Below are positions 34,170 through 55,894 of a stretch of 64,000 nt of DNA, piece after piece. Made by a program: the position numbers and the translations under genes. The stretch covers positions 4,201-68,200 of the forward strand of contig LFSC01000009.1 in the NCBI GenBank assembly GCA_001512505.1, written 5' to 3'. The DNA comes from Clostridiaceae bacterium DTU079. GTDB taxonomy: Bacteria > Bacillota > Clostridia > Acetivibrionales > Acetivibrionaceae. Position 1 is the first letter of the stretch. Each line of letters opens with the position of its first letter. Below the pieces are notes generated by a model. It saw only the letters and a list, made by a program, of their open reading frames with translations, had not been told where the DNA came from and did no database searches.

Positions 34170-34495
34170 TATGTACAGAATAATAATAAATTATTTGTGT
34201 ATTGTCAAATATTTTATCGATAACATATTTCTACATTAATGCACTATATCCTCCATATGTTATATTTACTTTGCGTAAATTGTTAAGAGAGGAAGCATTG
34301 AACAAAAGTAATTAAATATTCGGTAAAGCTCAGGCTTATTCTTTTTCTTTTCATCGCCAAAATAAACTGTAACATTTTAGGTCTTTATAACTATGATATA
34401 TTATAGTAATCTCTTTGTGTCGTTAAAATGAGGGTACATGAAATAAATGCATATAAATATATCCCTTTTATCAATATTGCCGGGAGGAATGTCAA

Positions 34496-34915
34496 ATGCT
34501 TTTTTTAAGAAGGAAGCATATTAAGAAAAACAAAATAAAGACGGAAGAACCTGTGTCAAAATCCGATTTCACAATGGAGCCTCCAGCTGATTACGGACCT
34601 TTGCAAAGGAATAATGTTAGCTTTTCTTTCCACATATCAAACTACATAGGTGAAACCGTAACTCTGTTTGTCGAGTCGGGAGGTATGACAGGAACAGGTT
34701 TTACCGGTATACTTTTATACGCAAACGAAGTATACGTAAAACTGCTAACCTCTATCGCGCCCGCTCCTTTTTGCCCCTTGGGAAATCCGTGCATCTTTAA
34801 TTTCTCATACTTTATTAGAAATCCCAATCCCTATGTTAATTCTATGAGAGATATGGGGGCAGTGGTCATTATACCGGTAAATAAAATCGTATCCTTTGTC
34901 CATAACATTATTTAA
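34496..34915 (+). CDS. Hypothetical small protein, paralogue A (basic N-terminal extension plus conserved NYIGETVT...CxLGNxC...VSFVHN core)
   Basis: 139-aa ORF with GGGAGGAA 7 nt upstream of the ATG. About 55% identical over the core to the convergent ORF at 34988..35428. I do not recognise the family with certainty. Confidence 0.7.
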   Translation: MLFLRRKHIKKNKIKTEEPVSKSDFTMEPPADYGPLQRNNVSFSFHISNYIGETVTLFVESGGMTGTGFTGILLYANEVYVKLLTSIAPAPFCPLGNPCIFNFSYFIRNPNPYVNSMRDMGAVVIIPVNKIVSFVHNII

Positions 34916-34928
34916 ACCGAAAGGTATT

Positions 34929-34956
34929 AAAAAAAACGGGAATATTCCCGGTTTTT
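34929..34956. terminator. Bidirectional intrinsic terminator shared by the convergent paralogues
   Basis: A8-CGGGAATATTCCCG-GT5: a perfect GC-capped palindrome with an A-run on one side and a T-run on the other. Confidence 0.8.
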
Positions 34957-34987
34957 AATCAATATATAATAATGGCACTAACTTCCA

Positions 34988-35428
34988 TCATACTGCATTA
35001 TGGACAAAGGCTACTATACTGTCTATAGGTATATCCGTTACTGAACCCAGCGTATATACCGGATAACCGTTCCATCCTCCGGCTGTCATTGAACCGCCTT
35101 CACCAAACGGGAGTCCTTGACCGTATCCAGTATCATAGCCTGCTGAGTATCCGTCATCAACACCGTATCCCCATCCCGCAGGCTTGTTTCCTTTTCCATA
35201 TTCATGACCGGCTTTAAATCCGTTACATGCATTGCCCAAAGCACATCCCGGTGCAGGGCCGATCCTTGTTATCAATCTGACAAAGCAATCATTAACAGAA
35301 AGAATAACACCTGTAAAACCGGAGCCCGATTGTCCGCCACTTTTTGTAAAAATTGTAACAGTTTCGCCTATATAGTTTGAAAGCAATGCTGGAAAGCTTC
35401 CTCCTGTAAAAGCACCAATGTTTGACAT
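34988..35428 (-). CDS. Hypothetical small protein, paralogue B (same core with a ~55-aa Gly/Tyr-rich insertion)
   Basis: The ORF track gives 34988..35434. I prefer the ATG at 35428 (AAAGGAGAG about 9 nt upstream). The core NYIGETVTIFTKSGGQSGSGFTGVILSVNDCFVRLITRIGPAPGCALGNAC ... IPIDSIVAFVHNAV parallels paralogue A. The insert is GWGYGVDDGYSAGYDTGYGQG... Confidence 0.7.
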   Translation of the reverse strand: MSNIGAFTGGSFPALLSNYIGETVTIFTKSGGQSGSGFTGVILSVNDCFVRLITRIGPAPGCALGNACNGFKAGHEYGKGNKPAGWGYGVDDGYSAGYDTGYGQGLPFGEGGSMTAGGWNGYPVYTLGSVTDIPIDSIVAFVHNAV

Positions 35429-35468
35429 TACCACTCTCTCCTTTCAATGCTGATAACTTTTTCTTATA

Positions 35469-35496
35469 TATCTTATGTCAACAGCAACTCGATTGT
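35469..35496 (-). promoter_or_regulatory. Candidate sigma-K-type (late mother-cell) promoter for paralogue B
   Basis: Minus strand reads AC (35496-35495), a 17-nt spacer, then CATAAGATA (35477-35469). This fits the B. subtilis sigma-K pattern AC-N16/17-CATAnnnTA and lies about 40 nt upstream of the ATG. Confidence 0.35.
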
Positions 35497-35540
35497 TACA
35501 GATTGCTCATTATTTATGTTAGGAAAAGAGTGGTAGAGCC

Positions 35541-37890: not shown

Positions 37891-38128
37891 GACATCCCTC
37901 CTATGCTAAAAACTATATGGCTTATTCCATTTGTATCTAATTATAACACATATAATAATCAAGTAGCCAATTGAAAGTTCGGTTTATTTTGCGGACCCAT
38001 TATATATAATACACTATATACCGTCATAAATAAACCACATCATTTTTCAAATGTGCATAATTAATACGAAGAAAAATACGGAAGAAAATTATGTCATAAA
38101 GTCCGAAGCCCGTAAATACGGCACACCT

Positions 38129-38389
38129 CTAATCGAAATGTTTTCTTATAAACCTGTCATCCAGATCCACCAGGATAATATCTTCTCCGATCTTTTTTAT
38201 CCTATCCCAGGGTATAACATATTCGTCATCTTTACCGACAAATCCGAACCAGCTTCTGCCTCCGGGTATCACAATAGCTTCAATTTTTCCCGATTCAAGG
38301 TTTATTTCAACATCGCAGACAAATCCGAGTCTTCTTCCATCTTTTATATTGATTACTTCCTTTTCCCTAAAATCCGATGTTCTGTTCAT
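38129..38389 (-). CDS. ylmC: YlmC/YmxH family sporulation protein (PRC-barrel)
   Basis: 86-aa ORF: FREKEVINIKDGRRLGFVCDVEINLESGKIEAIVIPG matches the YlmC/YmxH pattern. Conserved position downstream of sigG. Confidence 0.9.
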   Translation of the reverse strand: MNRTSDFREKEVINIKDGRRLGFVCDVEINLESGKIEAIVIPGGRSWFGFVGKDDEYVIPWDRIKKIGEDIILVDLDDRFIRKHFD

Positions 38390-38498
38390 ACCCCACTCCC
38401 CCTAAATACTGTCAAAGTTCTTCATCCTTAATATATGTAAGTAATTAAAATGATATGTTTATACTGATTTCACTCTCGAAACAAGTAATAAACAAATA

Positions 38499-38582: not shown

Positions 38583-39356
38583 TTATATATATTTTCTCAT
38601 ATGCATCAGAGCAGTCTTTTCCAGTCTTGAAACCTGAGCCTGGGAGATTCCGATTTCTTCAGCAACCTCCATTTGAGTTCTGCCGTCAAAGAAGCGAAGG
38701 TTTAGAATAAGTTTCTCCCTGTCGTTTAACTTTCTCATGGCTTCATTAAGTGCAATGCCCTCCAACCAGTTTTCATCGGTATTCTTATCGTCTTTAACCT
38801 GATCCATAACATAAATTGCATCTCCCCCATCATGATACACGGACTCAAACAGCGATATGGGGTCTTGGATTGCATCGAGGGCAAAAACCACATCTTCCTT
38901 TGGAATACCGAGTTCTTTAGCTATCTCTTCCACCGTAGGTTCCTTTGAGTTCATATTTGTCAGCTTTTCCTTTGCCTGAAGGGCCTTGTACGCAATATCC
39001 CTCAGGGATCGGCTTACACGAATGGAGTTGTTGTCACGAAGATATCTCCTAATTTCCCCTATAATCATAGGAACAGCATATGTTGAAAATTTAACGTTTT
39101 GGGACAAATCAAAGTTGTCAATTGCCTTAATAAGGCCAATACAACCCACCTGAAAAAGGTCATCAACGTATTCTCCCCTGTTGTTAAATCTTTGAATAAC
39201 ACTCAATACAAGCCTCAAATTTCCCTTTATGAATTCCTCTCTTGCCGAGGTATCTCCATTATGCATTCTTTCAAAGAGAGCCTTTTTTTGTTCATTAGTA
39301 AGTACTGGCAATTTCGATGTGTTTACACCACATATTTCAACTTTATTGATTAGCAT
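38583..39356 (-). CDS. sigG: Sporulation sigma factor SigG
   Basis: 257-aa ORF nearly collinear with B. subtilis SigG as I recall it (NKVEICGVNTSKLPVL ... GNLRLVLSVIQRFNNRGEYVDDLFQVGCIGL ... VKFSTYAVPMIIGEIRRYLRDNN). Confidence 0.96.
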   Translation of the reverse strand: MLINKVEICGVNTSKLPVLTNEQKKALFERMHNGDTSAREEFIKGNLRLVLSVIQRFNNRGEYVDDLFQVGCIGLIKAIDNFDLSQNVKFSTYAVPMIIGEIRRYLRDNNSIRVSRSLRDIAYKALQAKEKLTNMNSKEPTVEEIAKELGIPKEDVVFALDAIQDPISLFESVYHDGGDAIYVMDQVKDDKNTDENWLEGIALNEAMRKLNDREKLILNLRFFDGRTQMEVAEEIGISQAQVSRLEKTALMHMRKYI

Positions 39357-39390
39357 AAAAAACCTCCCGGCAATAAATTTAAGTCAGTAT

Positions 39391-39419
39391 CATTATTGCC
39401 ATGGAGGTTATTTTTATAC
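39391..39419 (-). promoter_or_regulatory. Candidate forespore (sigma-F/G type) promoter of sigG
   Basis: Minus strand reads GTATA (39419-39415), a 14-nt spacer, then GGCAATAATG (39400-39391). This resembles the sigma-F pattern GTATA-N15-GGnrAnAnTw. Lies about 35 nt upstream of the sigG start. Confidence 0.3.
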
Positions 39420-39511
39420 TGCATATAACACCATAAAATTTTGCATAAAAGCCTTGACAAACCCTGCACCAGTTGAAAATACTTGAACTGGTATTTTGTA
39501 GCAATATAAAA

Positions 39512-40246
39512 TCATGTCATTTTGCTTATTTCCTTTCTTAACCTGCTTATAATCTTTTTTTCAAGTCTTGATATATATGATTGGGAAATACCGAGCATGT
39601 CGGCAACTTCCTTCTGTGTTTTCTCAATCCCGCCGTTTGTAAGCCCAAAGCGAAGCTCCATTATTTTCTTCTCACGCACCGAGAGCTTTTTCATAGCTGT
39701 GCTAAGAAGCTCTCTATCCACTTCATCCTCAATACTTCTTTGAATAAGGTCATTTTCTGTCCCAAGAATATCTGAAAGAAGCAATTCATTACCGTCCCAA
39801 TCGACGTTTAGAGGCTCATCTATTGAAATCTCCGTCTTCATACGGTTATTTCTTCTTAGATACATCAATATTTCATTTTCAATGCATCTTGATGCATATG
39901 TAGCAAGCTTAATGTTTTTACTTGGGTTAAACGTATTTATGGCCTTAATTAACCCAATTGTACCTATGGAAATGAGATCCTCGACCCCCACTCCCGTATT
40001 TTCAAATTTTCTTGCGATATATACTACTAACCTTAAATTTCTTTCTATCAAAATTGACTTTACCCCATAATCTCTCTTCTCCAACTTATTTAGTAGATAG
40101 TTCTCTTCATCGTTACTCAGCGGCGGCGGCAAGGCTTCACTTCCTCCGATATAGTAAACGGGAGATTTATCGTAAAGTCCAAGCTTTCCCAACACATTAA
40201 TATACTTAATCATCAAAAAAAGTTTAAGCTTCTTAAAAACAAACAT
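39512..40246 (-). CDS. sigE: Sporulation sigma factor SigE (pro-sigma-E)
   Basis: 244-aa ORF with a pro-sequence ([20 protein letters not shown]) followed by [18 protein letters not shown], as in B. subtilis pro-sigma-E. Confidence 0.96.
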
Positions 40247-40324
40247 AACCTCGCTCCCTTCAACTAAAAATGATATATAATTTTACTAAAATTTTGACCC
40301 TGCTTAAAAAGTAAAATTACCCTT

Positions 40325-41218
40325 CTAAACCAATTCAGGACTTAAAAGCGCATTATAATTATTGTTTTTGGATAATGCCCTGTTGTAAATTCCTATGATC
40401 ACGTCTGTAACCCCCTTCTTTTCAGTATTTTCACCCACCTCAATATAATCGGGCTTAAATCCGATTAACATCCCGTTTTCTTTGCCCAAGGATTTAAACG
40501 GAATAAGTCTGAATCTCGACAACCAACTGGAGCCTGACACTATTTGAGTTACGCTGTTGAGGTCGTCTTCAATTGATTTATCAAAAATGCTCTGTATTTC
40601 CCTGGGCAATATATGTTTAATGGCATTAAACTCTACAACCACAACCGGTGAGTTGGTTAAAGGATCGTAAAGGGAGTTACCGGTATCAATCAGAGCCGAC
40701 AGATCGGTTATTTCATTTTCAAAAGCCACTTTCAAAGGTATTAAAAGCTTTTCCTTGGAAAGCCTTTGCTGAACTATATCCCAGAAAACCCTTATTATAA
40801 TGCCCGCTGTTAAAATTGCAAAAAGCAGAGAGGTCCATTTGGAATTCCACACATACACAATTCCGTTTTTTACAAATCCCCCTGTTTGATTAAAATAAAA
40901 AAACGCAAAGGCAGCACCGGCAAATATAAAAGTTGAGACATAAAATGTCACCAGAGTTCTGATAAAAGGTATCAATTTTCCGGGAGAAAAAGCAATAGCC
41001 ACAATCAAGAATGACAAAGCTATTTTCGCAGTAGTACTATAGTAAACCTTGATATTTGGAAACAACAGCAGGATTACTACATACAGAGCACCTATCAGAG
41101 ACGCTAAAAGCAACTTTAAATGAGATGTCTTATTCTTTGAAAATTTAGCTGTCAGCAACAATATAAGATAGTTAATAACTACATTTTCCAGAACTAAAAC
41201 ATCAACATATATTTTCAT
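40325..41218 (-). CDS. spoIIGA: Sigma-E processing peptidase SpoIIGA
   Basis: The ORF track gives 40325..41266. I prefer the ATG at 41218 (MKIYVDVLVLEN) with GGAGGCGGC upstream. Five TM helices and the aspartic protease motif LIDTGNSLYDPLT. Confidence 0.93.
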   Translation of the reverse strand: MKIYVDVLVLENVVINYLILLLTAKFSKNKTSHLKLLLASLIGALYVVILLLFPNIKVYYSTTAKIALSFLIVAIAFSPGKLIPFIRTLVTFYVSTFIFAGAAFAFFYFNQTGGFVKNGIVYVWNSKWTSLLFAILTAGIIIRVFWDIVQQRLSKEKLLIPLKVAFENEITDLSALIDTGNSLYDPLTNSPVVVVEFNAIKHILPREIQSIFDKSIEDDLNSVTQIVSGSSWLSRFRLIPFKSLGKENGMLIGFKPDYIEVGENTEKKGVTDVIIGIYNRALSKNNNYNALLSPELV

Positions 41219-41310
41219 TCTGCCGCCTCCTAAAAAACCGCAAATTAATGAATGCTCCCACCACAAGAAAATATCCTAAATAACATATATGCAAAAGCAT
41301 GTTTGATTAT

Positions 41311-41743: not shown

Positions 41744-42838
41744 TTATTTAAATCTGTTTCTCCTTAAGAAGGTTGGTATTTCCAACTCATCCGATGATGA
41801 CTGTACGGAAGGAGCTGTTTTTTCCGGAGCTGATACAGTAGGCTTTTCGCTAACAGCAGGCTTGTCAATTTTCTTCACAATAGGAGATTTGTCAAAACCT
41901 GTAGCAATTACAGTGATCAAAATCTCATCCTTGAGATTTTCATCAATAACCGCTCCAAAGATAATATTAGCATCGGGATCAGCGGATTTCTGTACCAGTT
42001 CCGCTGCCGTGTTGACCTCAAACAGTCCAAGATCTGCACCGCCGGTAATGTTGAGAAGAACTCCTCTTGCTCCGTCTATGGAAGTCTCCAAAAGCGGGCT
42101 CTGAATTGCCTGTTTTGCAGCCTCTTCTGCCCTGTTCTCGCCGGATGCACGTCCGATACCCATGTGGGCCAGACCGGTATCCAACATAATTGTCTTGACG
42201 TCGGCAAAGTCTAGGTTTACAAGACCAGGCACAGCAATCAGATCCGATATTCCCTGTACACCCTGCCTTAGCACATTATCAGCGATCTTAAAGGCATCAA
42301 CAATGGAAGTCTTCTTTTCTGCCACCTGAAGCAGTCTATCATTAGGTATTGTAACCAGAGTATCAACAGTGCTTTTCAATGCCTCTATTCCTCTCTCGGC
42401 ATGCTGCATCCTTTTTCTTCCTTCAAACATAAAGGGTTTTGTCACAACACCTACAGTTAAAATTCCCATTTCCTTTGCAATTTGCGCAACCACCGGAGCA
42501 GCTCCCGTTCCTGTTCCTCCGCCCATACCGGCAGTTACAAAAACCATATCTGCACCCTTAATTGCCTGGGCTATCTCATCCTTGCTCTCGTTAGCCGCCT
42601 TCTCACCGATTTCAGGGTTGGCTCCTGCTCCAAGTCCCTTTGTCAGCTTATCCCCAATTTGGATTTTAGTATTTGCTTTTGATAAAAACAAAGCCTGTTT
42701 ATCTGTATTTATCGCTATAAATTCCACACCACGCAAACCTGCAGTTATCATTCTATTAACAGCATTATTTCCTCCGCCACCAACACCTATAACTCTTATC
42801 TGGGCAAACTGTTCCATATCGATATCAAACTCCAGCAC
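41744..42838 (-). CDS. ftsZ: Cell division GTPase FtsZ
   Basis: The ORF track gives 41744..42874 (TTG start). I prefer the GTG at 42838 ([31 protein letters not shown], matching the Bacillus FtsZ N-terminus) with GGGGGA 6 nt upstream. Tubulin signature [10 protein letters not shown] present. Confidence 0.96.
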
Positions 42839-43124
42839 TTTAAATCCCCCTTTTTTTTCATTGGTAACAACCAACCGTTAATTACATCACTTCTATACTG
42901 ATTTTCAAGATATTGTCCAAAATTAAATACATGTTAACAATCATTCTCTCAATAATTAATAATATATTAATATTAAAGATTTCGCAAGAACGTATTTCGG
43001 GTATTTAATCCGCTACTTGAAATCTAAAATATACATCGGTAAGATTGAAAAAACAATTACATATAATTTATATAATTATACTCAATTAAAATAAATATGC
43101 GTTTCGAAAAAAAGAATTAAAATG

Positions 43125-44354
43125 TCAAAATAAACCGTTGAAGAGACTGGCTATTTTCTTTAGAATTCCAAACTCCTTTTTTTGCCTGTTTGGTTTTGAG
43201 CTTTTTGTGTCTTTTCTTCCTGACTTCATCCGTTCTGCAACATACCTTAAAATAGCAATTGAAGTCAGATACTCGGGGTTTGCAATGCCCAGAGACTTAT
43301 AGGCTACCAACCTGACAGGTAAATTAAAAACTTCCTTTGCCAACTCTACACTGCCATCCATATATGAAATACCGGCTCCGGCAAGAACAATCTCTCCGCT
43401 GAAATCCTTAAATTCGCCGGTTTCTTCAAGTTTTTCCTTGCAAAGCAAAAATATTTCCTGAATTCTAGCTTCTATTATCTCAACCACCTGTGAAACTTTA
43501 ATTGTTTTTCTGGTATTTCCGTCAAGTTCATTAACAGTTATTTCATGATCATTGCTAATAAGCGAAGTAAGAGCCAAGCTATATTCTCTCTTAAGTTTTT
43601 CCGCATCACTTGACGATATTCGAAGACCTATGGAAATATCATTTGTAATATGATCCCCTCCCACAGGTATGGAATCATACAATACTATGCTCTTGTTTTT
43701 GAATACCGATACATTTGTAACTCCACCGCCAATATCGATAAGAACTGCTCCCATCTCTTTTTCATCAAAAGTCAAAGCAGTTTCTCCCAGCGCAAGAGCT
43801 TCAGCAATAAAACCGTCAATAGTAACATTGGCCTTTTCCAAACTTTTTACAATATTGTTAAATGTTGTTATTTTCCCGACAACAACATCCGATTCCACTT
43901 CAAGCTTTACTCCTGCCATACCAAGAGGATCAATAATTCCGTCACATCCATCCACTATATACTGTCTTGGGACTATATCAATAATCCGGAGGTCTTCAGG
44001 AAGTTTAACGTCTTCAACCTTTTTAAGAACCCTTTCAATATCCCCCGATGTTATTTCATGATCCTGCCTTAAAACATCTACAGAACTTTTAAAATAGAAT
44101 AAGTCGACATGTAATCCCATAACATTTACATAAGCAGATTCTATGCTTATATTTGTCAGAGCCTTCAGTTTTTGAACGCAGCTTCTCACTGCATCCGAAA
44201 CGGAGTCAATATCGACAATTACCCCTTTTTTCACTCCGCTGCAAGGCTCAATAGCCTTCCCCAATATTTCCACATTGCCCAATTCGCTCAATCTTGCAAC
44301 AAAAGCACAAACCTTGGATGTTCCTATATCAATACAACTAATTATATCCTCCAC
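43125..44354 (-). CDS. ftsA: Cell division protein FtsA
   Basis: 409-aa actin-like ATPase (IDIGTSKVCAFVA ... LIDIGGGVTNVSVF) with a C-terminal amphipathic helix (ILKKIASLFNGLF). Confidence 0.95.
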   Translation of the reverse strand: MEDIISCIDIGTSKVCAFVARLSELGNVEILGKAIEPCSGVKKGVIVDIDSVSDAVRSCVQKLKALTNISIESAYVNVMGLHVDLFYFKSSVDVLRQDHEITSGDIERVLKKVEDVKLPEDLRIIDIVPRQYIVDGCDGIIDPLGMAGVKLEVESDVVVGKITTFNNIVKSLEKANVTIDGFIAEALALGETALTFDEKEMGAVLIDIGGGVTNVSVFKNKSIVLYDSIPVGGDHITNDISIGLRISSSDAEKLKREYSLALTSLISNDHEITVNELDGNTRKTIKVSQVVEIIEARIQEIFLLCKEKLEETGEFKDFSGEIVLAGAGISYMDGSVELAKEVFNLPVRLVAYKSLGIANPEYLTSIAILRYVAERMKSGRKDTKSSKPNRQKKEFGILKKIASLFNGLF

Positions 44355-48914: not shown

Positions 48915-48925
48915 TCAAAGCTATA

Positions 48926-48987
48926 AGTGAAGAAAAATATTTCAGAAACTAAAGTTTTACAATGTTTCTTTCATATTTTTCTTCACT
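48926..48987 (+). terminator. Long hairpin after gatD (copy B of the GAAGAAAAATAT hairpin family), probable terminator
   Basis: Arms AGTGAAGAAAAATATTTCAGAAAC (48926-48949) and GTTTCTTTCATATTTTTCTTCACT (48964-48987): 15 bp, a 3x3 internal loop (TTC/TTC), then 6 bp. 14-nt loop, followed by TTTTATAAT. Confidence 0.65.
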
Positions 48988-49049
48988 TTTATAATGTACC
49001 AATTAACAATATAGAATTTTTAACAGCAGATACCTAATGAACATAAAAT

Positions 49050-49111
49050 AATATGCTCCCCCTATGAAAACAGTCGGACTAACTTTACTGTTATCATAAG
49101 AGGAGCATATT
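49050..49111 (-). terminator. Long hairpin downstream of the dockerin gene, probable terminator
   Basis: AATATGCTCC pairs with GGAGCATATT (outer) and TATGAAAACAGT with ACTGTTATCATA (inner, 1 mismatch). On the minus strand it is followed by ATTTTATG. Confidence 0.55.
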
Positions 49112-49160
49112 CTATGTATATAATTATTTTACGCTACATTTTTTACTTATTTAAAAATTC

Positions 49161-50195
49161 CTAAAAGTAAAAGCTCCATGGGTCACTGCGGTCTACTCTG
49201 GGGTCTGTATCCCATGTAAACTCATCATCCGACATGTGATTGTTTTTATAATACCATACACCCAAAGCAGCTGTCTCATCAGCATAACTTCTAATCCACG
49301 ACTCATCCGAACCGTCTATCCATCCTGTGTTATACCCCATCAAACCGTGTCGAAGCACATCCTTGCCACTATATTTTTCCTGAGCTAACCTGGCAAAGTG
49401 TAAAAAGTGTCTAATTCCCATATGTGTGGATACTCCGACGTCATAGAAATTATAATCATTAAAATCGTACTGTGTCATTTCCGGAACATTTTCCTCAGGC
49501 ATATAGTTAGGATTCGCATTCGCATATGCCGTTTCGGCAGTCTGCAAAGGTCCGAAAGCATGTGCCGCCCCGCTTCCTGTTTCAGTTCCGGCCCTAAATG
49601 TCGACTCACGGGTAGCCATACCGAAGAAAAACGCATATGCTGCTTCTTTGTTCTTAAAACCGCATACACTTTGTATTACATCCCAGTGATCGTCAACCTG
49701 TTTCTTGATAATTGCCTTTACCTCGCTGACTTTCAGTGCAGATGCCTTTGAAATAAGCTCAGACTTCGAAGTCCCCGCCGGGAAATAACCGTCATTATAA
49801 TTATTGGATTGGGTAGGTGTAGGTGTGGATGTATATTTCGGAATTTGCGTCGGTGTTGCTGAAGGATTCGGTGTATAATAAATTTGTTCTTTCGGAAAAG
49901 TTTTTATTTTACGGAGCAAATATCTTTTCATATAGTTAACATCAATGCTATTAATAGAGTTATCTCCGTCAAGGTCACCGACCCAAAGATCGTCATCGGC
50001 AGGAAAATCTCTGATAACTCGAAGAATATATCTTTTAAGAAGTGTAAGATCAATACTGTCAATAAAATTGTCCACATTGACGTCTCCGATTGCCGGTCGA
50101 GTCTCGGAATAAACATAATAGGACTTACCGAAGCATAAAAATGTCATGAAAATAATCAAAAATACGGAAAGAGAAAGCAATATTTTTTTTCCCAT
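49161..50195 (-). CDS. Secreted protein with an N-terminal type I dockerin, a Pro/Thr linker and a C-terminal lysozyme/SLT-like domain (tentative)
   Basis: 344-aa ORF with a signal peptide and two dockerin repeats (GDVNVDNFIDSIDLTLLKRYIL and GDLDGDNSINSIDVNYMKRYLL). Linker TPNPSATPTQIPKYTSTPTPTQ. The C-domain shows an E-S (MATREST), GPLQ, GYNTG motif series reminiscent of family-1 lytic transglycosylases/GH23. Confidence 0.75.
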   Translation of the reverse strand: MGKKILLSLSVFLIIFMTFLCFGKSYYVYSETRPAIGDVNVDNFIDSIDLTLLKRYILRVIRDFPADDDLWVGDLDGDNSINSIDVNYMKRYLLRKIKTFPKEQIYYTPNPSATPTQIPKYTSTPTPTQSNNYNDGYFPAGTSKSELISKASALKVSEVKAIIKKQVDDHWDVIQSVCGFKNKEAAYAFFFGMATRESTFRAGTETGSGAAHAFGPLQTAETAYANANPNYMPEENVPEMTQYDFNDYNFYDVGVSTHMGIRHFLHFARLAQEKYSGKDVLRHGLMGYNTGWIDGSDESWIRSYADETAALGVWYYKNNHMSDDEFTWDTDPRVDRSDPWSFYF

Positions 50196-51687: not shown

Positions 51688-54600
51688 TTATGTAATATCA
51701 ACCTTCATTGTTACCTTCACCGTCATATTCTCCGGATATGCCTCGATATCCTTAGAAACGGTCTTATTATCCGCATCTATGTATTCAAGTTTAAACTTCA
51801 ATTTTGCATCCTTGCCTTCAAACAATATATCACCGGGTTTCAAGAACTGAACCTTAATAATAAAGCTGTCAATGCTAAAGTTATACTTCTCACCGTCAAA
51901 GGAAAGAGGAACGATACCTATATTACCGGAAACCTTGTCCCTGGTCATTCCGTCAACCACAACGGTTTGGATTTCCATCCACTCAGGAACTTCCAGAACC
52001 TTAACCCCAACCGGGAAAATTTCTTCATATACTGCATCATTAAGGGATACATCATATACCGTTTCTAAATTTATTTGCTCAAATATATTGTAAAGATCAA
52101 TTTTGTTCTTTCCACTGTAAAAATGCTTTCCTGTATTTGTTACTTCCTCTGCACCACTGGCTACCGCAATAGTCTCCAATACTGCATCAATATCATTAGG
52201 CGAAAAGTCAATGAAAAACGGTCTGATTTTGCTTCCACTAATGATGCTTCCAATATCCTTAGCATAATCCAAAGATTTGTATAATACCTCATCGGACTTT
52301 ATATGCTGGGCATTTCCATCATCTGTTTTGGGCTTCAAAGTTACATTACTGGTACTTGTCCACTTGTTAGGTACGGAACCTGCAAGTACAACAATATACT
52401 TTTCCGCCTTTTTCCCTGGAGATTTGTTCAATATGTGATATGCTCTTCTCATGCCGTCGCCCAAATTACTATCCCCCGAAGTTCCGGGTGCAATATCGTT
52501 TATCTTTTTCTTCAGATCATTTACTTCTTTTTCGGAAGACATATTAAATAGCTTGAAATCATTTTTGTTTGCTGAGTCCGAGTACTGAATAACAGCGATT
52601 TTGGTTTTTGTACCTGCATATAAATCAACTAAAGCCTTTGCCACATCCTTGACAGATTTCAAGTAAGTATCGCTCTCGATATATTTCTTTTCGATAGAGT
52701 CAAATTGTCCTTGCATATGATTAACTGTAAGTCTGGCAGCACTAAAGTTTAGGTTGCTTCCGGCAATAGTTCCATTTATTGTATTGTTATTCCCATTAAA
52801 ATATATATTACCGGAATAGGGAACAGACGGATTTCCCGGAGCATAAGCTATTCCGTTAATTGTAGAGTTACTGGTCTGAAACTCAATGTTTCCGTTAATG
52901 GAATATACATATAATCTGTCATTAGGTCCGGTGGGATATATGTCTCTTCCCTGTATGGTAATATTACCGTCTGCAATAAGAAATCCCTCGTTAACGTTAT
53001 TTGTATTATTCAACGATATAAAGAGATTTGACATAAAATACATGGATGAATTTATTACAAGGGTGCCACCGCCTGTAATCTCAAATCGTTGGTAAAACCA
53101 GTTATATTCTATAAAAATATCGGTTTGTCCAGGCATAGGACGGCGGTTTATAGGAAAAAGAAAGTCCACGGGTTTGTAAACTTGCATATTCGCAGCTGCT
53201 TCATTAATCAACTGCGAGTGAAAATAAGGCATCTCAACCGGCATTGTAATGTTAATTAGTTCCTTTACCTCAAAGTACGGGCTTATGATCTCAAATGTAC
53301 AAGCGGTAGAAATACCGTCAATCTTTACACTGAAAGCTGTGGATCTAAATAAATTATTGGCATGAGTATTTCCGTTAACTACAGCACCCTGTCCTTGAAG
53401 TATTAAGTCATGGTTTGAGTATATTCCAAAATCCAGAGGCGTCCAAACATCCTCCTGGTAAGTATTTAATATCCCAGAGTTGTCAATTACCAGTACTATT
53501 TCATTTTCCTTGTTTATTTTACCGTCTACAATAAGTTCTCCCTCATGGTATATTGTTATGTCGGTAGAGGCTCCAAGCTCCGCTTCCTTTATCGAATTTC
53601 TTGAAAGCTTTATACCTTTATTCACACCATCATTAGTGGGTGACGGGGACGGAGGCGGTAATGTAATCTTTTCAATTATGACATTATCTATATATATATC
53701 ATGACTATTATTGGGTGATTCCCCAAACTTACCCATGCTGAAAACAAGCGTAGCTATTTGATCATAAGAACTTTTCATGGTAAATTCATAGGTATAAGTT
53801 TTCATATTGGTATCAATGCTCTGTGTCTTGGAAAAATATTCTGTATAGGTTGTTTGGTTTCTGATTGCAACCCTTATATCCCTTTTAACACTTGCCTTCG
53901 CATCAAAAGAAACCCTATATGTAGTAGCACTCTTCAATTCCAATCCATCCTGCATTAATTGAATAGACCAGTAATCCGATCCGACATTTTTTATATTCGT
54001 TACCGACCACATATCTCCATAACCGTCATTTACAACCGCGTTGCTGGCATCAGCACCGGATATACTTGTAGATTTAAATACCCAATTTTTTGATCCGTCT
54101 GTAAAATTACCGTTTTTGACAATTTGATTTGCAGGCATCGGAACATTCGGTCTTGGAGCTTGAACCGGCGTAGGAACATAAGTCGGTAAAGGAGCCTCGG
54201 TCGGAGTTGATACAGGAGTAGACGTTGAAGCAAAGGTAGGAGTCGGAACTACCGGTATGGTTGGCTCAACACTCGCCGAAGGAACAGAAGATAAAATCAC
54301 AGGTTCCGTTCCAAAAACTTTAACACCGTCTAAATACGCAGTCACCTTATCCCACTGTGCATAGTCAGTGTTTGTGCTGCAAAAAGAATAATCGTTTTTC
54401 TGGTTGAATTTCGGGTTATAATTGGGGTGATATACCCTTACTTTTATCTCCGAAAAGTTATTTGGAGCAAGGGTTCCCGCTGCTTTATTATATCCCAGCT
54501 CAATATACTTGTTTGCATCCGGTGAGTTTACCTGGATTATGGACCATGTTATAGAACTATTAATATTAGAATAGTTGTTATGTGCATAATCAACAGAGAC

Positions 54601-54867
54601 AGTAATAGGCGATACGCCGTCATCATTGAAATAGTACCTGAACTTGATGCTCGAAAGATCAACCCCAGAAGAGCCTAAATTCCTGACCCTAAAGTTGATA
54701 TACATCGCATCTATATTCTCTCCTGTGTTGCCATTGAAAAATTCAACTCTGATATTCTGTCCATCCGCATATACATTCATACCAACGCTTGCTGCCGATA
54801 TAATGCTTAGAAATATACATATATTGAGTAGTAGTATGCCGATTCGTTGGAGCATTCTCTTCGTCAT
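51688..54867 (-). CDS. Secreted multidomain protein: signal peptide, CBM3, Pro/Thr linker, CBM4_9/22-like module, then a VWA-like domain interrupted by a beta-helix-like insertion, and a C-terminal beta-rich domain
   Basis: 1059-aa ORF. CBM3 pattern (IRVEFFNGNTGENIDAMYINFRVRNLGSSGVDLSSIKFRYYF ... NDYSF ... KVTAYLDGVKVFGTEP). Second module KNGNFTDGSKNW ... IYIDNVIIEKI. VWA pieces IVLVIDNSGI and, about 290 aa later, KIAVIQYSDSA ... GDSNLGDGMRRAY ... KYIVVLAGSVPN. Repetitive GN(I/T)xxxG stretches lie between them. Confidence 0.8.
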   Translation of the reverse strand: MTKRMLQRIGILLLNICIFLSIISAASVGMNVYADGQNIRVEFFNGNTGENIDAMYINFRVRNLGSSGVDLSSIKFRYYFNDDGVSPITVSVDYAHNNYSNINSSITWSIIQVNSPDANKYIELGYNKAAGTLAPNNFSEIKVRVYHPNYNPKFNQKNDYSFCSTNTDYAQWDKVTAYLDGVKVFGTEPVILSSVPSASVEPTIPVVPTPTFASTSTPVSTPTEAPLPTYVPTPVQAPRPNVPMPANQIVKNGNFTDGSKNWVFKSTSISGADASNAVVNDGYGDMWSVTNIKNVGSDYWSIQLMQDGLELKSATTYRVSFDAKASVKRDIRVAIRNQTTYTEYFSKTQSIDTNMKTYTYEFTMKSSYDQIATLVFSMGKFGESPNNSHDIYIDNVIIEKITLPPPSPSPTNDGVNKGIKLSRNSIKEAELGASTDITIYHEGELIVDGKINKENEIVLVIDNSGILNTYQEDVWTPLDFGIYSNHDLILQGQGAVVNGNTHANNLFRSTAFSVKIDGISTACTFEIISPYFEVKELINITMPVEMPYFHSQLINEAAANMQVYKPVDFLFPINRRPMPGQTDIFIEYNWFYQRFEITGGGTLVINSSMYFMSNLFISLNNTNNVNEGFLIADGNITIQGRDIYPTGPNDRLYVYSINGNIEFQTSNSTINGIAYAPGNPSVPYSGNIYFNGNNNTINGTIAGSNLNFSAARLTVNHMQGQFDSIEKKYIESDTYLKSVKDVAKALVDLYAGTKTKIAVIQYSDSANKNDFKLFNMSSEKEVNDLKKKINDIAPGTSGDSNLGDGMRRAYHILNKSPGKKAEKYIVVLAGSVPNKWTSTSNVTLKPKTDDGNAQHIKSDEVLYKSLDYAKDIGSIISGSKIRPFFIDFSPNDIDAVLETIAVASGAEEVTNTGKHFYSGKNKIDLYNIFEQINLETVYDVSLNDAVYEEIFPVGVKVLEVPEWMEIQTVVVDGMTRDKVSGNIGIVPLSFDGEKYNFSIDSFIIKVQFLKPGDILFEGKDAKLKFKLEYIDADNKTVSKDIEAYPENMTVKVTMKVDIT

Positions 54868-55126: not shown

Positions 55127-55894
55127 TTATAAGTCAAACTGAGAAATTTTTATTTGCTTTCTTTGGTCACCGATGGTTTTTACAATAATAAATTTAGGTT
55201 CAAAAGAGGAGTCTACATAAATTTCAGCCTCAAAGAAGTACATTTCTCCTTCTTTTTTTGTCACCTTTGCCATACCGCTGTAAAACTTTCTTGAACTGTC
55301 GTACGCTTCTAATGTGAGAGTTTTAGTTGCCGTATTGGTTTTGCCGAAAATTCTCAACAATTTTCCTTCCGCTTCTGTTACAATACTGTCAATTGTAAAT
55401 TCTACTTCTCTATAATAAGCCATTTCACCAAGCTCGTGCTTATCATCAATATAACTGATATAAACCGTCCTTGTGTTTCCATCCCATGATACTTCCGCAC
55501 CAGCGTTCTCACTTACAAACCTTAGAGGCACAAAGGTTCTTCCGTTCACTATTTCAGAAGCTGCGTCAAGATCTATACGGTATCCGTTAACAAAAGCATA
55601 TTCCTTTCCGATTTCAATAAAAATCTCTGTTGTATCATTGGTTGCCAATACGGTACGATTTACTCCATCCCAGCTTACTTCCACCCCTAGAGCCTCAAAT
55701 ATTCCCCTAAAAGGTACCATTGTTCTTCCGTTTTTTATGTAAGGGTTAACATCAAACTCCAGCTTCGTACCATTTAAAAAGATTTTTATATCATCCTGAG
55801 CTGCAAAAGTAAAGCTGGCGGTCAAAGCAAATGTGACTAATATACAAAATACCGTAACATACGCATAAAAACCGGACATTCTTTTCATAAGCAT
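55127..55894 (-). CDS. Secreted/membrane-anchored protein with two copper-amine-oxidase N-terminal (stalk-like) repeats and an unknown C-terminal domain
   Basis: 255-aa ORF with an N-terminal hydrophobic segment. Repeats: LNGTKLEFDVNPYIKNGRTMVPFRGIFEALGVEVSWDGVNRTV and VNGYRIDLDAASEIVNGRTFVPLRFVSENAGAEVSWDGNTRTV. Confidence 0.8.
   Translation of the reverse strand: MLMKRMSGFYAYVTVFCILVTFALTASFTFAAQDDIKIFLNGTKLEFDVNPYIKNGRTMVPFRGIFEALGVEVSWDGVNRTVLATNDTTEIFIEIGKEYAFVNGYRIDLDAASEIVNGRTFVPLRFVSENAGAEVSWDGNTRTVYISYIDDKHELGEMAYYREVEFTIDSIVTEAEGKLLRIFGKTNTATKTLTLEAYDSSRKFYSGMAKVTKKEGEMYFFEAEIYVDSSFEPKFIIVKTIGDQRKQIKISQFDL

Follow-up and report, generated by a model that had tools for sequence, protein, structure and literature searches.

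The convergent genes A and B, located in a 64,000-nucleotide stretch of the genome of Clostridiaceae bacterium DTU079 (contig LFSC01000009.1, positions 4,201 to 68,200; this whole stretch is referred to as the window), encode two small paralogous proteins of an undescribed family. On balance, we favour the interpretation that they are Sm-like proteins produced late in the mother cell, which assemble by themselves as components of the spore coat or exosporium. Late expression that is specific to sporulation is very probable for this family and a location in the coat or exosporium is probable, while assembly into rings or hetero-rings is a tentative proposal made by analogy. We base the late mother-cell interpretation on the occurrence of the family in Clostridia from spore-forming genera, on a sigma-K-type promoter and on co-induction with coat genes. 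It is supported further by the lack of a signal peptide, the Tyr/Gly-rich loops, the conserved cysteines and the clusters of paralogues with Tyr-rich open reading frames (ORFs).

The paralogous genes A and B

An earlier note on this DNA, made from the sequence alone, had described a convergent pair of paralogous small proteins, and this description holds. Both ORFs are present (Table 1), and their products match each other in BLASTP with E=3e-24, an overall identity of 35% and an identity of 59% across a 58-residue N-terminal core. A second block conserved between the two, IPxxxIVxFVHN, is located at the C-terminus. The alignment also contains the other features listed in the note, namely the CxLGNxC pair, the C-terminal block, a short loop in A, a Gly/Tyr-rich loop of approximately 59 residues in B and a basic extension that only A carries. 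The bidirectional terminator that the two genes were said to share was recovered on both strands as the perfect palindrome CGGGAATATTCCCG, preceded by an A-run and followed by a T-run. No third paralogue was found in the 64-kb window, and inspection of the sequences revealed no signal peptide in A or B.

Two start codons can be considered for gene B, an ATG at 35428 and a GTG at 35434, the latter giving a product of 148 amino acids (34988-35434, minus strand). The ATG is more likely to be the start, as indicated by AAGGAGAGA upstream of it and by agreement with the 146-amino-acid database protein P0001. The position of the ribosome-binding site of gene A, together with the retention of the extension in orthologues, supports genuine translation of the long N-terminal extension. 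Judged by the ratios of non-synonymous to synonymous substitution rates (dN/dS) against orthologues, which are 0.33 for gene A and 0.15-0.21 for gene B, both are real coding genes under purifying selection.

Family size, distribution and gene context

Neither A nor B matched any family model in Pfam and NCBIfam scans, and the homologues of B, of which there are at least 788 with 60-79% identity across genera, are without exception named 'hypothetical protein', in agreement with the earlier view that the family was unrecognised. Orthologues of A in Acetivibrio show 51-67% identity. An exhaustive profile search resulted in 358 clusters at 50% identity. When each GTDB species was scanned through a single genome, 353 matches were confirmed, the best 80 of which were used to read the host range. 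The named hosts among the matches listed are all Clostridia and comprise Acetivibrio, Ruminiclostridium, Defluviitalea, Epulonipiscium, Alkalibaculum sporogenes, Clostridium thermopalmarium, C. bovifaecis and metagenome-assembled genomes (MAGs) of Oscillospiraceae. On present evidence, the family appears limited to Clostridia, from spore-forming genera. It is a multi-copy family, with 3-7 or more paralogues per genome; several MAGs supply 3-5 separate family loci, and 2-4 adjacent members occur in 24 of 79 loci. An association with mobile elements was rejected after tblastn searches of 72,556 plasmids and 50,697 phage records found nothing.

The family can be divided by the residue that follows GETVT-I/L-F, with 'FT' defining the B-type and 'FV' the A-type. 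B-type proteins have a short N-terminus, with a median of 23 residues ahead of the motif, and in close relatives their loops contain 30% Gly and 11% Tyr and end in a nearly invariant TAGGWNGYPVYTVGS stretch. A-type proteins carry an N-terminal extension (median 56 residues) that begins with a hydrophobic-basic motif (MLFLRRKHIKKNK, MFFLRRRRRK, MFWKRRKN and similar), and their loops are shorter than those of the B-type and not Gly/Tyr-rich. Of the top 150 representatives, 79 are classed as B-like and 49 as A-like. A word-indexed search with 9 hits had suggested that the A-type was confined to Acetivibrio, which was overturned by the exhaustive profile search; by its sequence distribution, the A-type is a broad subfamily in its own right. 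The earlier note had correctly assigned the basic extension to A only, within the pair, and was silent on the breadth of the A-type and on the multi-copy nature of the family. C62, C68 and H143 are nearly invariant, and the hairpin SGGxSGxGFTG is invariant.

The N-terminal motif of the A-type can be written as M-F/L-F/L-x-RR-x-R-K-K followed by a variable linker, and is present in 34 of the 49 A-like representatives. Its sites include 34496-34603 (plus strand) in the window and those in loci L001, L005, L007, L008, L012, L024, L026, L027 and L043.

Genes of the two types are convergent neighbours in four Acetivibrio genomes and divergent neighbours in several MAGs, and a B-A-B cluster is found in Pseudoclostridium thermosuccinogenes. 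This persistence of adjacency while the orientation changes argues for a functional pairing of the A and B types.

Clustering of the ORFs from 80 loci identified no conserved neighbour that hints at a function, only lineage-specific synteny (thiC, thymidine kinase and others), and besides this two small ORFs without annotation. One of these, of 103 amino acids and consisting of little else than Tyr, Gly and Asn (…NYGNYGNYGPYDAYGNQFYGNNYG…), lies between family paralogues in locus L060 (4869-5192) and in 7 other Ruminiclostridium-type loci. It gave no match in a Pfam scan and, by composition, looks like another coat-type low-complexity protein. The other is a conserved ORF of 124 amino acids directly 5' of a family gene in locus L022 (5459-5866) and in 16 other loci of Acetivibrio- or Ruminiclostridium-type, which likewise had no Pfam match.

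Promoters and probable expression late in sporulation

Gene B is preceded by a sigma-K-type promoter with a GTAACA -35 element ('AC'), a 17-nt spacer and the -10 element CATAAGATA; the strict match to AC-N16-17-CATAnnnTA, ACAATCGAGTTGCTGTTGACATAAGATA, is at 35469-35496 (minus strand), about 40 nt before the start codon. The family consensus is GTAACA-N12-GTTAACATAAnnT(A/G)TA, which fits the pattern AC-N16-18-CATAnnnT. Within 150 nt upstream, this pattern was present for 81 of 115 family genes versus 14 of 550 controls, these being other ORFs of at least 150 amino acids in the same loci. When redundancy due to similar upstream regions was removed, the element occurred in 55 of 81, versus 2.9 expected from shuffles (approximately 19-fold). 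In C. difficile and B. subtilis, a -35 'AC' together with a -10 'CATATAAT' is the sigma-K signature, and the combination of 'AC' with a CATA-type -10 separates sigma-K from sigma-E promoters (PMC3789822).

Gene A is preceded by a promoter-like element composed of GTAACA, 17 nt and (C)TATGATAT, and the same element, as GTAAC(A/C)-N15-17-CTATGATAT, is also found ahead of A-type genes in 7 other loci. In Acetivibrio, the A-type genes have a leader of 90-130 nt after the CTATGATAT -10. Although the -35 is identical to that of the B-type, the conserved -10 CTATGATAT differs from CATAnnnT, and because of this deviation the sigma factor for the A-type promoter is uncertain.

Expression was assessed from the orthologues in C. 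thermocellum, where the syntenic order is ftsZ, spoIIGA, sigE, sigG, PRC-barrel gene, nrdR, Maf, olpC, B, A and comM. As olpC is Cthe_0452, B corresponds to Cthe_0453 and A to Cthe_0454. A published time course lists Cthe_0453 among 73 genes that were significant on both platforms, and the RNA-seq signal of this gene increased between 12 h and 37 h by log2 3.3 on Populus and log2 5.6 on switchgrass (PMC3880215). It has the same profile as cotJB, a cotJC-type catalase gene, two cotS genes, dpaA, yabG and yunB (PMC3880215). Cthe_0454 rose on the array by log2 1.35 and 2.84, with p=1e-7 and 4e-12 (supplementary tables, PMC3880215).

These data would also be compatible with general stationary-phase or stress proteins whose promoters resemble those of sigma-K by coincidence, since only 12 h and 37 h bulk cultures were compared and the strain sporulates poorly (0-7%). 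We consider this very improbable. The roughly 19-fold promoter enrichment over shuffles was obtained for non-redundant, taxonomically diverse loci in which the -35, the -10 and the spacing are all conserved, the induction follows bona fide sporulation genes one for one, and the named hosts are all Clostridia of spore-forming genera. The sigma-K-type promoters and the co-induction of the orthologues with coat genes give indirect support to the earlier suggestion that the Gly/Tyr-rich insert belongs to a spore coat or other self-assembling surface protein.

Predicted fold

Single-chain AlphaFold2 models were obtained for A from 62 sequences and for B from 25 sequences. The model of A has a mean predicted local distance difference test (pLDDT) score of 77, with values above 90 in the core, and contains a helix (residues 37-48) and five strands (54-59, 67-76, 80-86, 122-127 and 131-136). 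The model of B has the same order of secondary-structure elements; its overall pLDDT is 53, with approximately 82 in the core (residues 10-55 and 128-146) and less than 50 in the loop, which is predicted to be disordered. In the models, the variable insert is placed between strands 3 and 4. The core is confidently predicted to have Sm/Lsm topology, with one N-terminal helix and five strongly bent antiparallel strands.

In a Foldseek comparison with the PDB, the top match of the A model was MnxE (9bxa_E, E=3.4e-3, template modelling (TM) score 0.62), followed by GerQ (8zra_A, E=3e-2, TM 0.59, root-mean-square deviation 10.3 Å over 112 columns) and then by Hfq, Gemin6/7 and Sm proteins. The matches of the B model were all weak and were to Sm/Lsm/Hfq folds; GerQ 8zra_A ranked 17th among them. 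For both models, the similarity to GerQ indicates the same fold class and nothing more. At the sequence level, the RimP C-terminal domain (PF17384, DUF150_C) gave a weak match in 12 of 28 members (best E=2.1e-5), with A and B each reaching 14 bits versus a cut-off of 26.3 bits and all matches remaining below the Pfam gathering thresholds. The proposal in the earlier note of a small Lsm/SH3-like barrel is therefore borne out at the level of the fold, by the predicted helix and five strands, the Foldseek matches and the weak RimP_C matches. Its more specific suggestion of DUF2642 did not hold, as PF10842 matched neither A nor B at E<=1 nor any of the 28 members at E<=10, and membership was rejected; the two are alike only in the general sense of small beta-barrel proteins of spore-forming Firmicutes. 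A search of all PDB sequences with the family profile at E<=10 returned only 6jfw, a chance match (E=0.24), and no Mnx chain. According to these predictions, the family is Sm-like in fold yet outside every described family.

The Sm-like fold, with its matches to Hfq, Sm and Gemin proteins, and the Arg/Lys-rich N-terminal tail of the A-type would suit mother-cell proteins that bind RNA in order to regulate or store it at a late stage of sporulation and that have no structural role in the spore. The predicted topology is indeed that of the Sm/Lsm/Hfq proteins, including RimP_C, and eukaryotic Sm proteins also vary in length between strands 3 and 4. We nevertheless give an RNA-binding function little weight. 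The LSM and Hfq models of Pfam matched none of the 28 members, and SM-ATX matched a single one, weakly (E=0.15). The conserved ETVTIF, SGGxSGxGFTG, CxLGNxC and FVHN motifs are family-specific and differ from the motifs of the Sm1/Sm2 RNA pocket. The Gly/Tyr-rich loops of 50 residues, the Cys pair, the multi-copy clusters and the interleaved Tyr-rich ORFs are coat-like, and expression and gene context point to spores rather than to RNA metabolism.

Comparison with known spore proteins

The late mother-cell expression proposed for A and B is also a feature of CotC/CotU and CotY/Z of B. subtilis and of the clostridial proteins CsxA and CdeC, as are low-complexity Tyr/Gly-rich segments, conserved cysteines, paralogue clusters and presumed self-assembly. 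These proteins differ from A and B in that they are not Sm-like and have no sequence relationship to them, and most coat proteins differ from the family in lacking a core that is 60-79% identical across genera. Our comparison with Tyr/Gly- or Cys-rich coat and exosporium proteins draws partly on PMC7333573.

Closer in predicted fold is GerQ, a Bacillus coat protein (PF09671, PDB 8zra), which is a small mother-cell spore protein, as A and B probably are, and has an Sm-like core and a low-complexity region. GerQ forms rings of 9 subunits with continuous inter-subunit beta-sheets, and filaments (PMC11405398), a mode of assembly that by analogy may also apply to A and B. The low-complexity region of GerQ is N-terminal and Gln-rich, whereas that of the A/B family is internal, between strands 3 and 4, and Gly/Tyr-rich. 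GerQ furthermore has neither the CxLGNxC pair nor the SGGxSGxGFTG hairpin and, by database names, is found mainly in Bacilli, whereas the A/B family has been seen only in Clostridia, is multi-copy and comprises two subfamilies. Membership of the GerQ family was rejected: PF09671 (Spore_GerQ) matched none of the 28 members at E<=10, and hhalign comparisons were not significant, either with the GerQ core alone or with a 30-sequence GerQ alignment. As this profile comparison was negative, the ring analogy is one of fold class alone.

MnxE and MnxF, components of the exosporium Mn oxidase of Bacillus sp. PL-12 (PDB 9bxa), are two small related subunits that are encoded together. They alternate in an E3F3 hexamer, and MnxE contains a disulfide (PMC5622069). 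This spore-surface ring and the disulfide parallel the adjacent A/B pair and its Cys pair, although the Mnx proteins have neither a long Gly/Tyr loop nor a basic tail and share no sequence similarity with the family.

These two best structural matches are both adaptor proteins: GerQ recruits the cortex lytic enzyme CwlJ, which GerQ rings are proposed to bind, and MnxE3F3, a copper-binding ring, holds the multicopper oxidase MnxG. An Sm-like ring of A and B might likewise be an adaptor or scaffold that recruits or activates a spore-surface enzyme, rather than bulk structural material, and the Cys pair and C-terminal His might bind metal. This possibility overlaps with the interpretation that we favour, and the sigma-K promoter and late expression fit it equally. 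The conservation of C62, C68, H143 and the SGGxSGxGFTG hairpin points to a specific site, beyond what packing needs. We consider a role as enzyme adaptor unlikely, however. No oxidase or lytic-enzyme gene is a conserved neighbour in the 80 loci, and in the window no multicopper oxidase gene occurs within approximately 9 kb of A and B. The family has no sequence similarity to GerQ or Mnx proteins, and both its copy number, 3-7 or more paralogues in a genome, and the hypervariable low-complexity loops of these are more matrix-like.

Proposed role in the spore surface

The analysis establishes that A and B are homologous, how far the family extends, which fold is predicted for it, that its promoter is conserved and that the orthologues are co-expressed late with coat genes. 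For the favoured role as self-assembling coat or exosporium proteins, we infer the compartment, the location in the spore, the formation of rings, the A/B hetero-assembly and the cross-linking, and propose the following mechanism. Late in sporulation, B would be transcribed in the mother cell from its canonical sigma-K-type promoter and A from a related one that shares its -35 element. The products of both genes would be deposited on the forespore as structural or scaffold parts of the coat or exosporium. Their conserved cores may oligomerise into rings by pairing of edge strands, in the manner of Sm proteins, of the GerQ nonamer and of the MnxE3F3 hexamer, and these rings could be mixed, since both types are repeatedly encoded side by side. 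Extending outward from the ring, the Gly/Tyr loop of the B-type and the conserved Cys pair would form contacts or cross-links (dityrosine, disulfide), and the hydrophobic-basic N-terminal tail of the A-type would anchor or target the assembly. In a more far-reaching version, alternating A/B rings would build up, by stacking or tiling, a conserved outer layer of the spore, or else a filament or appendage, anchored by the basic tail of A and cross-linked by the Gly/Tyr loops and Cys pair of B; this is speculative and we regard it as doubtful. If true, the clostridial spore surface would have its first building block that is both broadly conserved and structurally defined, and spore architecture would have recruited the Sm fold independently for a third time, following GerQ and MnxEF.

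Several observations weigh against a role in the spore surface. The expression data concern orthologues in another species and were obtained from bulk late-stationary cultures rather than from a sigK mutant or sorted sporangia. The promoter assignments are matches to a consensus, and the -10 of the A-type, TATGATAT, does not follow CATAnnnT and is similar to a sigma-A -10 as well. The structural matches are weak, the best having E=3.4e-3, and hhalign comparison of the 62-sequence family profile with the GerQ alignment gave a non-significant probability of 0.25% (E=0.24). Sm-like folds are more often RNA-binding, and the basic tail of the A-type also suits nucleic-acid binding. The host range, as read from the best 80 of 353 genome matches, is provisional. 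In the literature, including searches by locus tag, the family is absent except for one 'hypothetical protein' row in a transcriptome table; no spore proteome or sigK study of C. thermocellum, nor any spore proteome naming a family member, was found there.

What is new here is the family itself; its probable kind, small spore-surface proteins with an Sm-like core that are made late in the mother cell and self-assemble, is known from GerQ and MnxEF. Clostridial coat and exosporium proteins are poorly known and poorly conserved between species, which limits our understanding of how the spores of pathogenic, industrial and gut anaerobes resist stress, adhere and germinate. With its abundance, unusually conserved core, confident fold prediction and clear late-sporulation promoter signature, the family lends itself to study as a possible structural module common to the spore surfaces of Clostridia, and direct tests of this prediction are feasible because C. 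thermocellum and Ruminiclostridium are open to genetic work. Should the ring model prove correct, Sm-like rings would be a recurrent architectural solution in endospores and a self-assembling, heat-stable scaffold of possible biotechnological use. For annotation, several hundred 'hypothetical proteins' would gain a putative functional label.

The adjacent Maf gene and other features of the window

In the window, the next gene upstream of B encodes a Maf-type glycosyltransferase of 623 amino acids, and a Maf gene takes this place in three further Acetivibrio-type genomes as well. The earlier note had raised a possible link between the pair and this gene. A and B could be partners or substrates of Maf, either as glycosylated spore-surface proteins or as accessories of flagellin glycosylation. 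Some glycan synthesis does appear to occur late: Cthe_2640-2654, a cluster of nonulosonic-acid type for sugar synthesis, has the same late profile as the coat genes and Cthe_0453 (PMC3880215, Table 4). It encodes a NeuC-like epimerase, a NeuD-family acetyltransferase, an aminotransferase, an aldolase and CapD (PMC3880215), and its late induction hints at sporulation-associated glycan synthesis. A partnership with Maf is nevertheless quite improbable, and we place Maf outside the A/B system on four grounds. Among the 80 related loci, a Maf homologue is near family genes in only 3, and additionally in C. thermocellum; the other contexts of the family are unrelated. In C. thermocellum, the cohesin gene olpC (Cthe_0452; L001 7050-7841) is inserted between Maf and B. 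In the window, Maf follows nrdR on the same strand after a gap of 22 nt, suggesting a vegetative operon. Co-regulation is lacking as well, since the Maf gene Cthe_0451 is flat or slightly higher early (12.9, 12.6, 12.9 and 12.5), as is nrdR, while Cthe_0453 and Cthe_0454 rise 3-10-fold by comparison (PMC3880215). The gap between Maf and B in the window (35435-35540) measures 106 bp and contains the B promoter only.

Maf had also been called an orphan, which holds only in part and not at the scale of the genome. The main flagellar operon, the usual context of Maf, starts approximately 9 kb away in the same window, which makes a conventional flagellar role for Maf plausible. This flagellar/chemotaxis operon includes cheB, flhA, fliP, flgE, fliK, fliI, fliG, fliF and rod genes. 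The coordinates of all features are given in Table 1.

Table 1. Positions of genes, signals and protein segments in the window
Feature	Position	Strand	Basis or remark
Gene A, A-type ('FV') member, 139 amino acids	34496-34915	+	ORF list
Gene A, ribosome-binding site GGGAGG	34482-34487	+	Read from sequence; 8 nt before start
Gene A, promoter-like element GTAACA, 17 nt, (C)TATGATAT	34369-34400	+	Pattern search; about 95 nt before A start
Gene A, hydrophobic-basic tail and linker	residues 1-36		
Gene A, helix, strands 1-3 and CxLGNxC pair	residues 37-99		
Gene A, short loop, not Gly/Tyr-rich	residues 100-120		
Gene A, strands 4-5	residues 121-139		
Bidirectional intrinsic terminator common to A and B, perfect palindrome CGGGAATATTCCCG	34937-34950	both	Terminator scan
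Gene B, B-type ('FT') member, 146 amino acids from ATG at 35428	34988-35428	-	ORF list
Gene B, strands 4-5 (IPIDSIVAFVHNAV)	34991-35047	-	
Gene B, Gly/Tyr-rich loop ending in conserved TAGGWNGYPVYTLGS stretch	35048-35224	-	
Gene B, helix, strands 1-3 and CxLGNxC	35225-35401	-	
Gene B, ribosome-binding site AAGGAGAGA	35435-35443	-	Read from sequence
Gene B, sigma-K-type promoter GTAACA, 17 nt, CATAAGATA	35469-35499	-	
Maf-type glycosyltransferase, 623 amino acids	35541-37412	-	MptE-like E=5.7e-47, Maf_flag10_N E=5.9e-9
Flagellar/chemotaxis operon	1669-26327	-	
ORF of 126 amino acids, probably spurious	38051-38431	+	Antisense to PRC-barrel gene
Sporulation/division cluster, three stretches	38129-38389; 38583-41266; 41744-44354	-	
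Cellulosome-related genes	49161-50195; 51688-54867; 55127-55894	-	

The pair is located near a core sporulation/division cluster that contains ftsA, ftsZ, spoIIGA, sigE, sigG, a PRC-barrel (YlmC/YmxH-like) gene and nrdR. Further along the window, the cellulosome-related products are Cel124 with a type I dockerin, a CBM3/CBM4_9/VWA protein and a protein with a copper-amine-oxidase-N1 domain, and their genes are consistent with a cellulolytic Acetivibrio. The database proteins P0001 and P0121 show 100% identity to proteins of Acetivibrio MAGs, which places the source of the window in Acetivibrio, as an uncultured member.

A promoter-like element of the family type, TAACAGCAGATACCTAATGAACATAAAATA, was found at 49021-49050 (plus strand) in the intergenic gap at 48915-49160, together with further matches at 49048-49074 (minus strand) and 49087-49114 (plus strand). 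No ORF of at least 37 amino acids follows it on the plus strand. The element points at the 3' end of the minus-strand Cel124/dockerin gene and could be the promoter of a small or antisense RNA, or a chance match.

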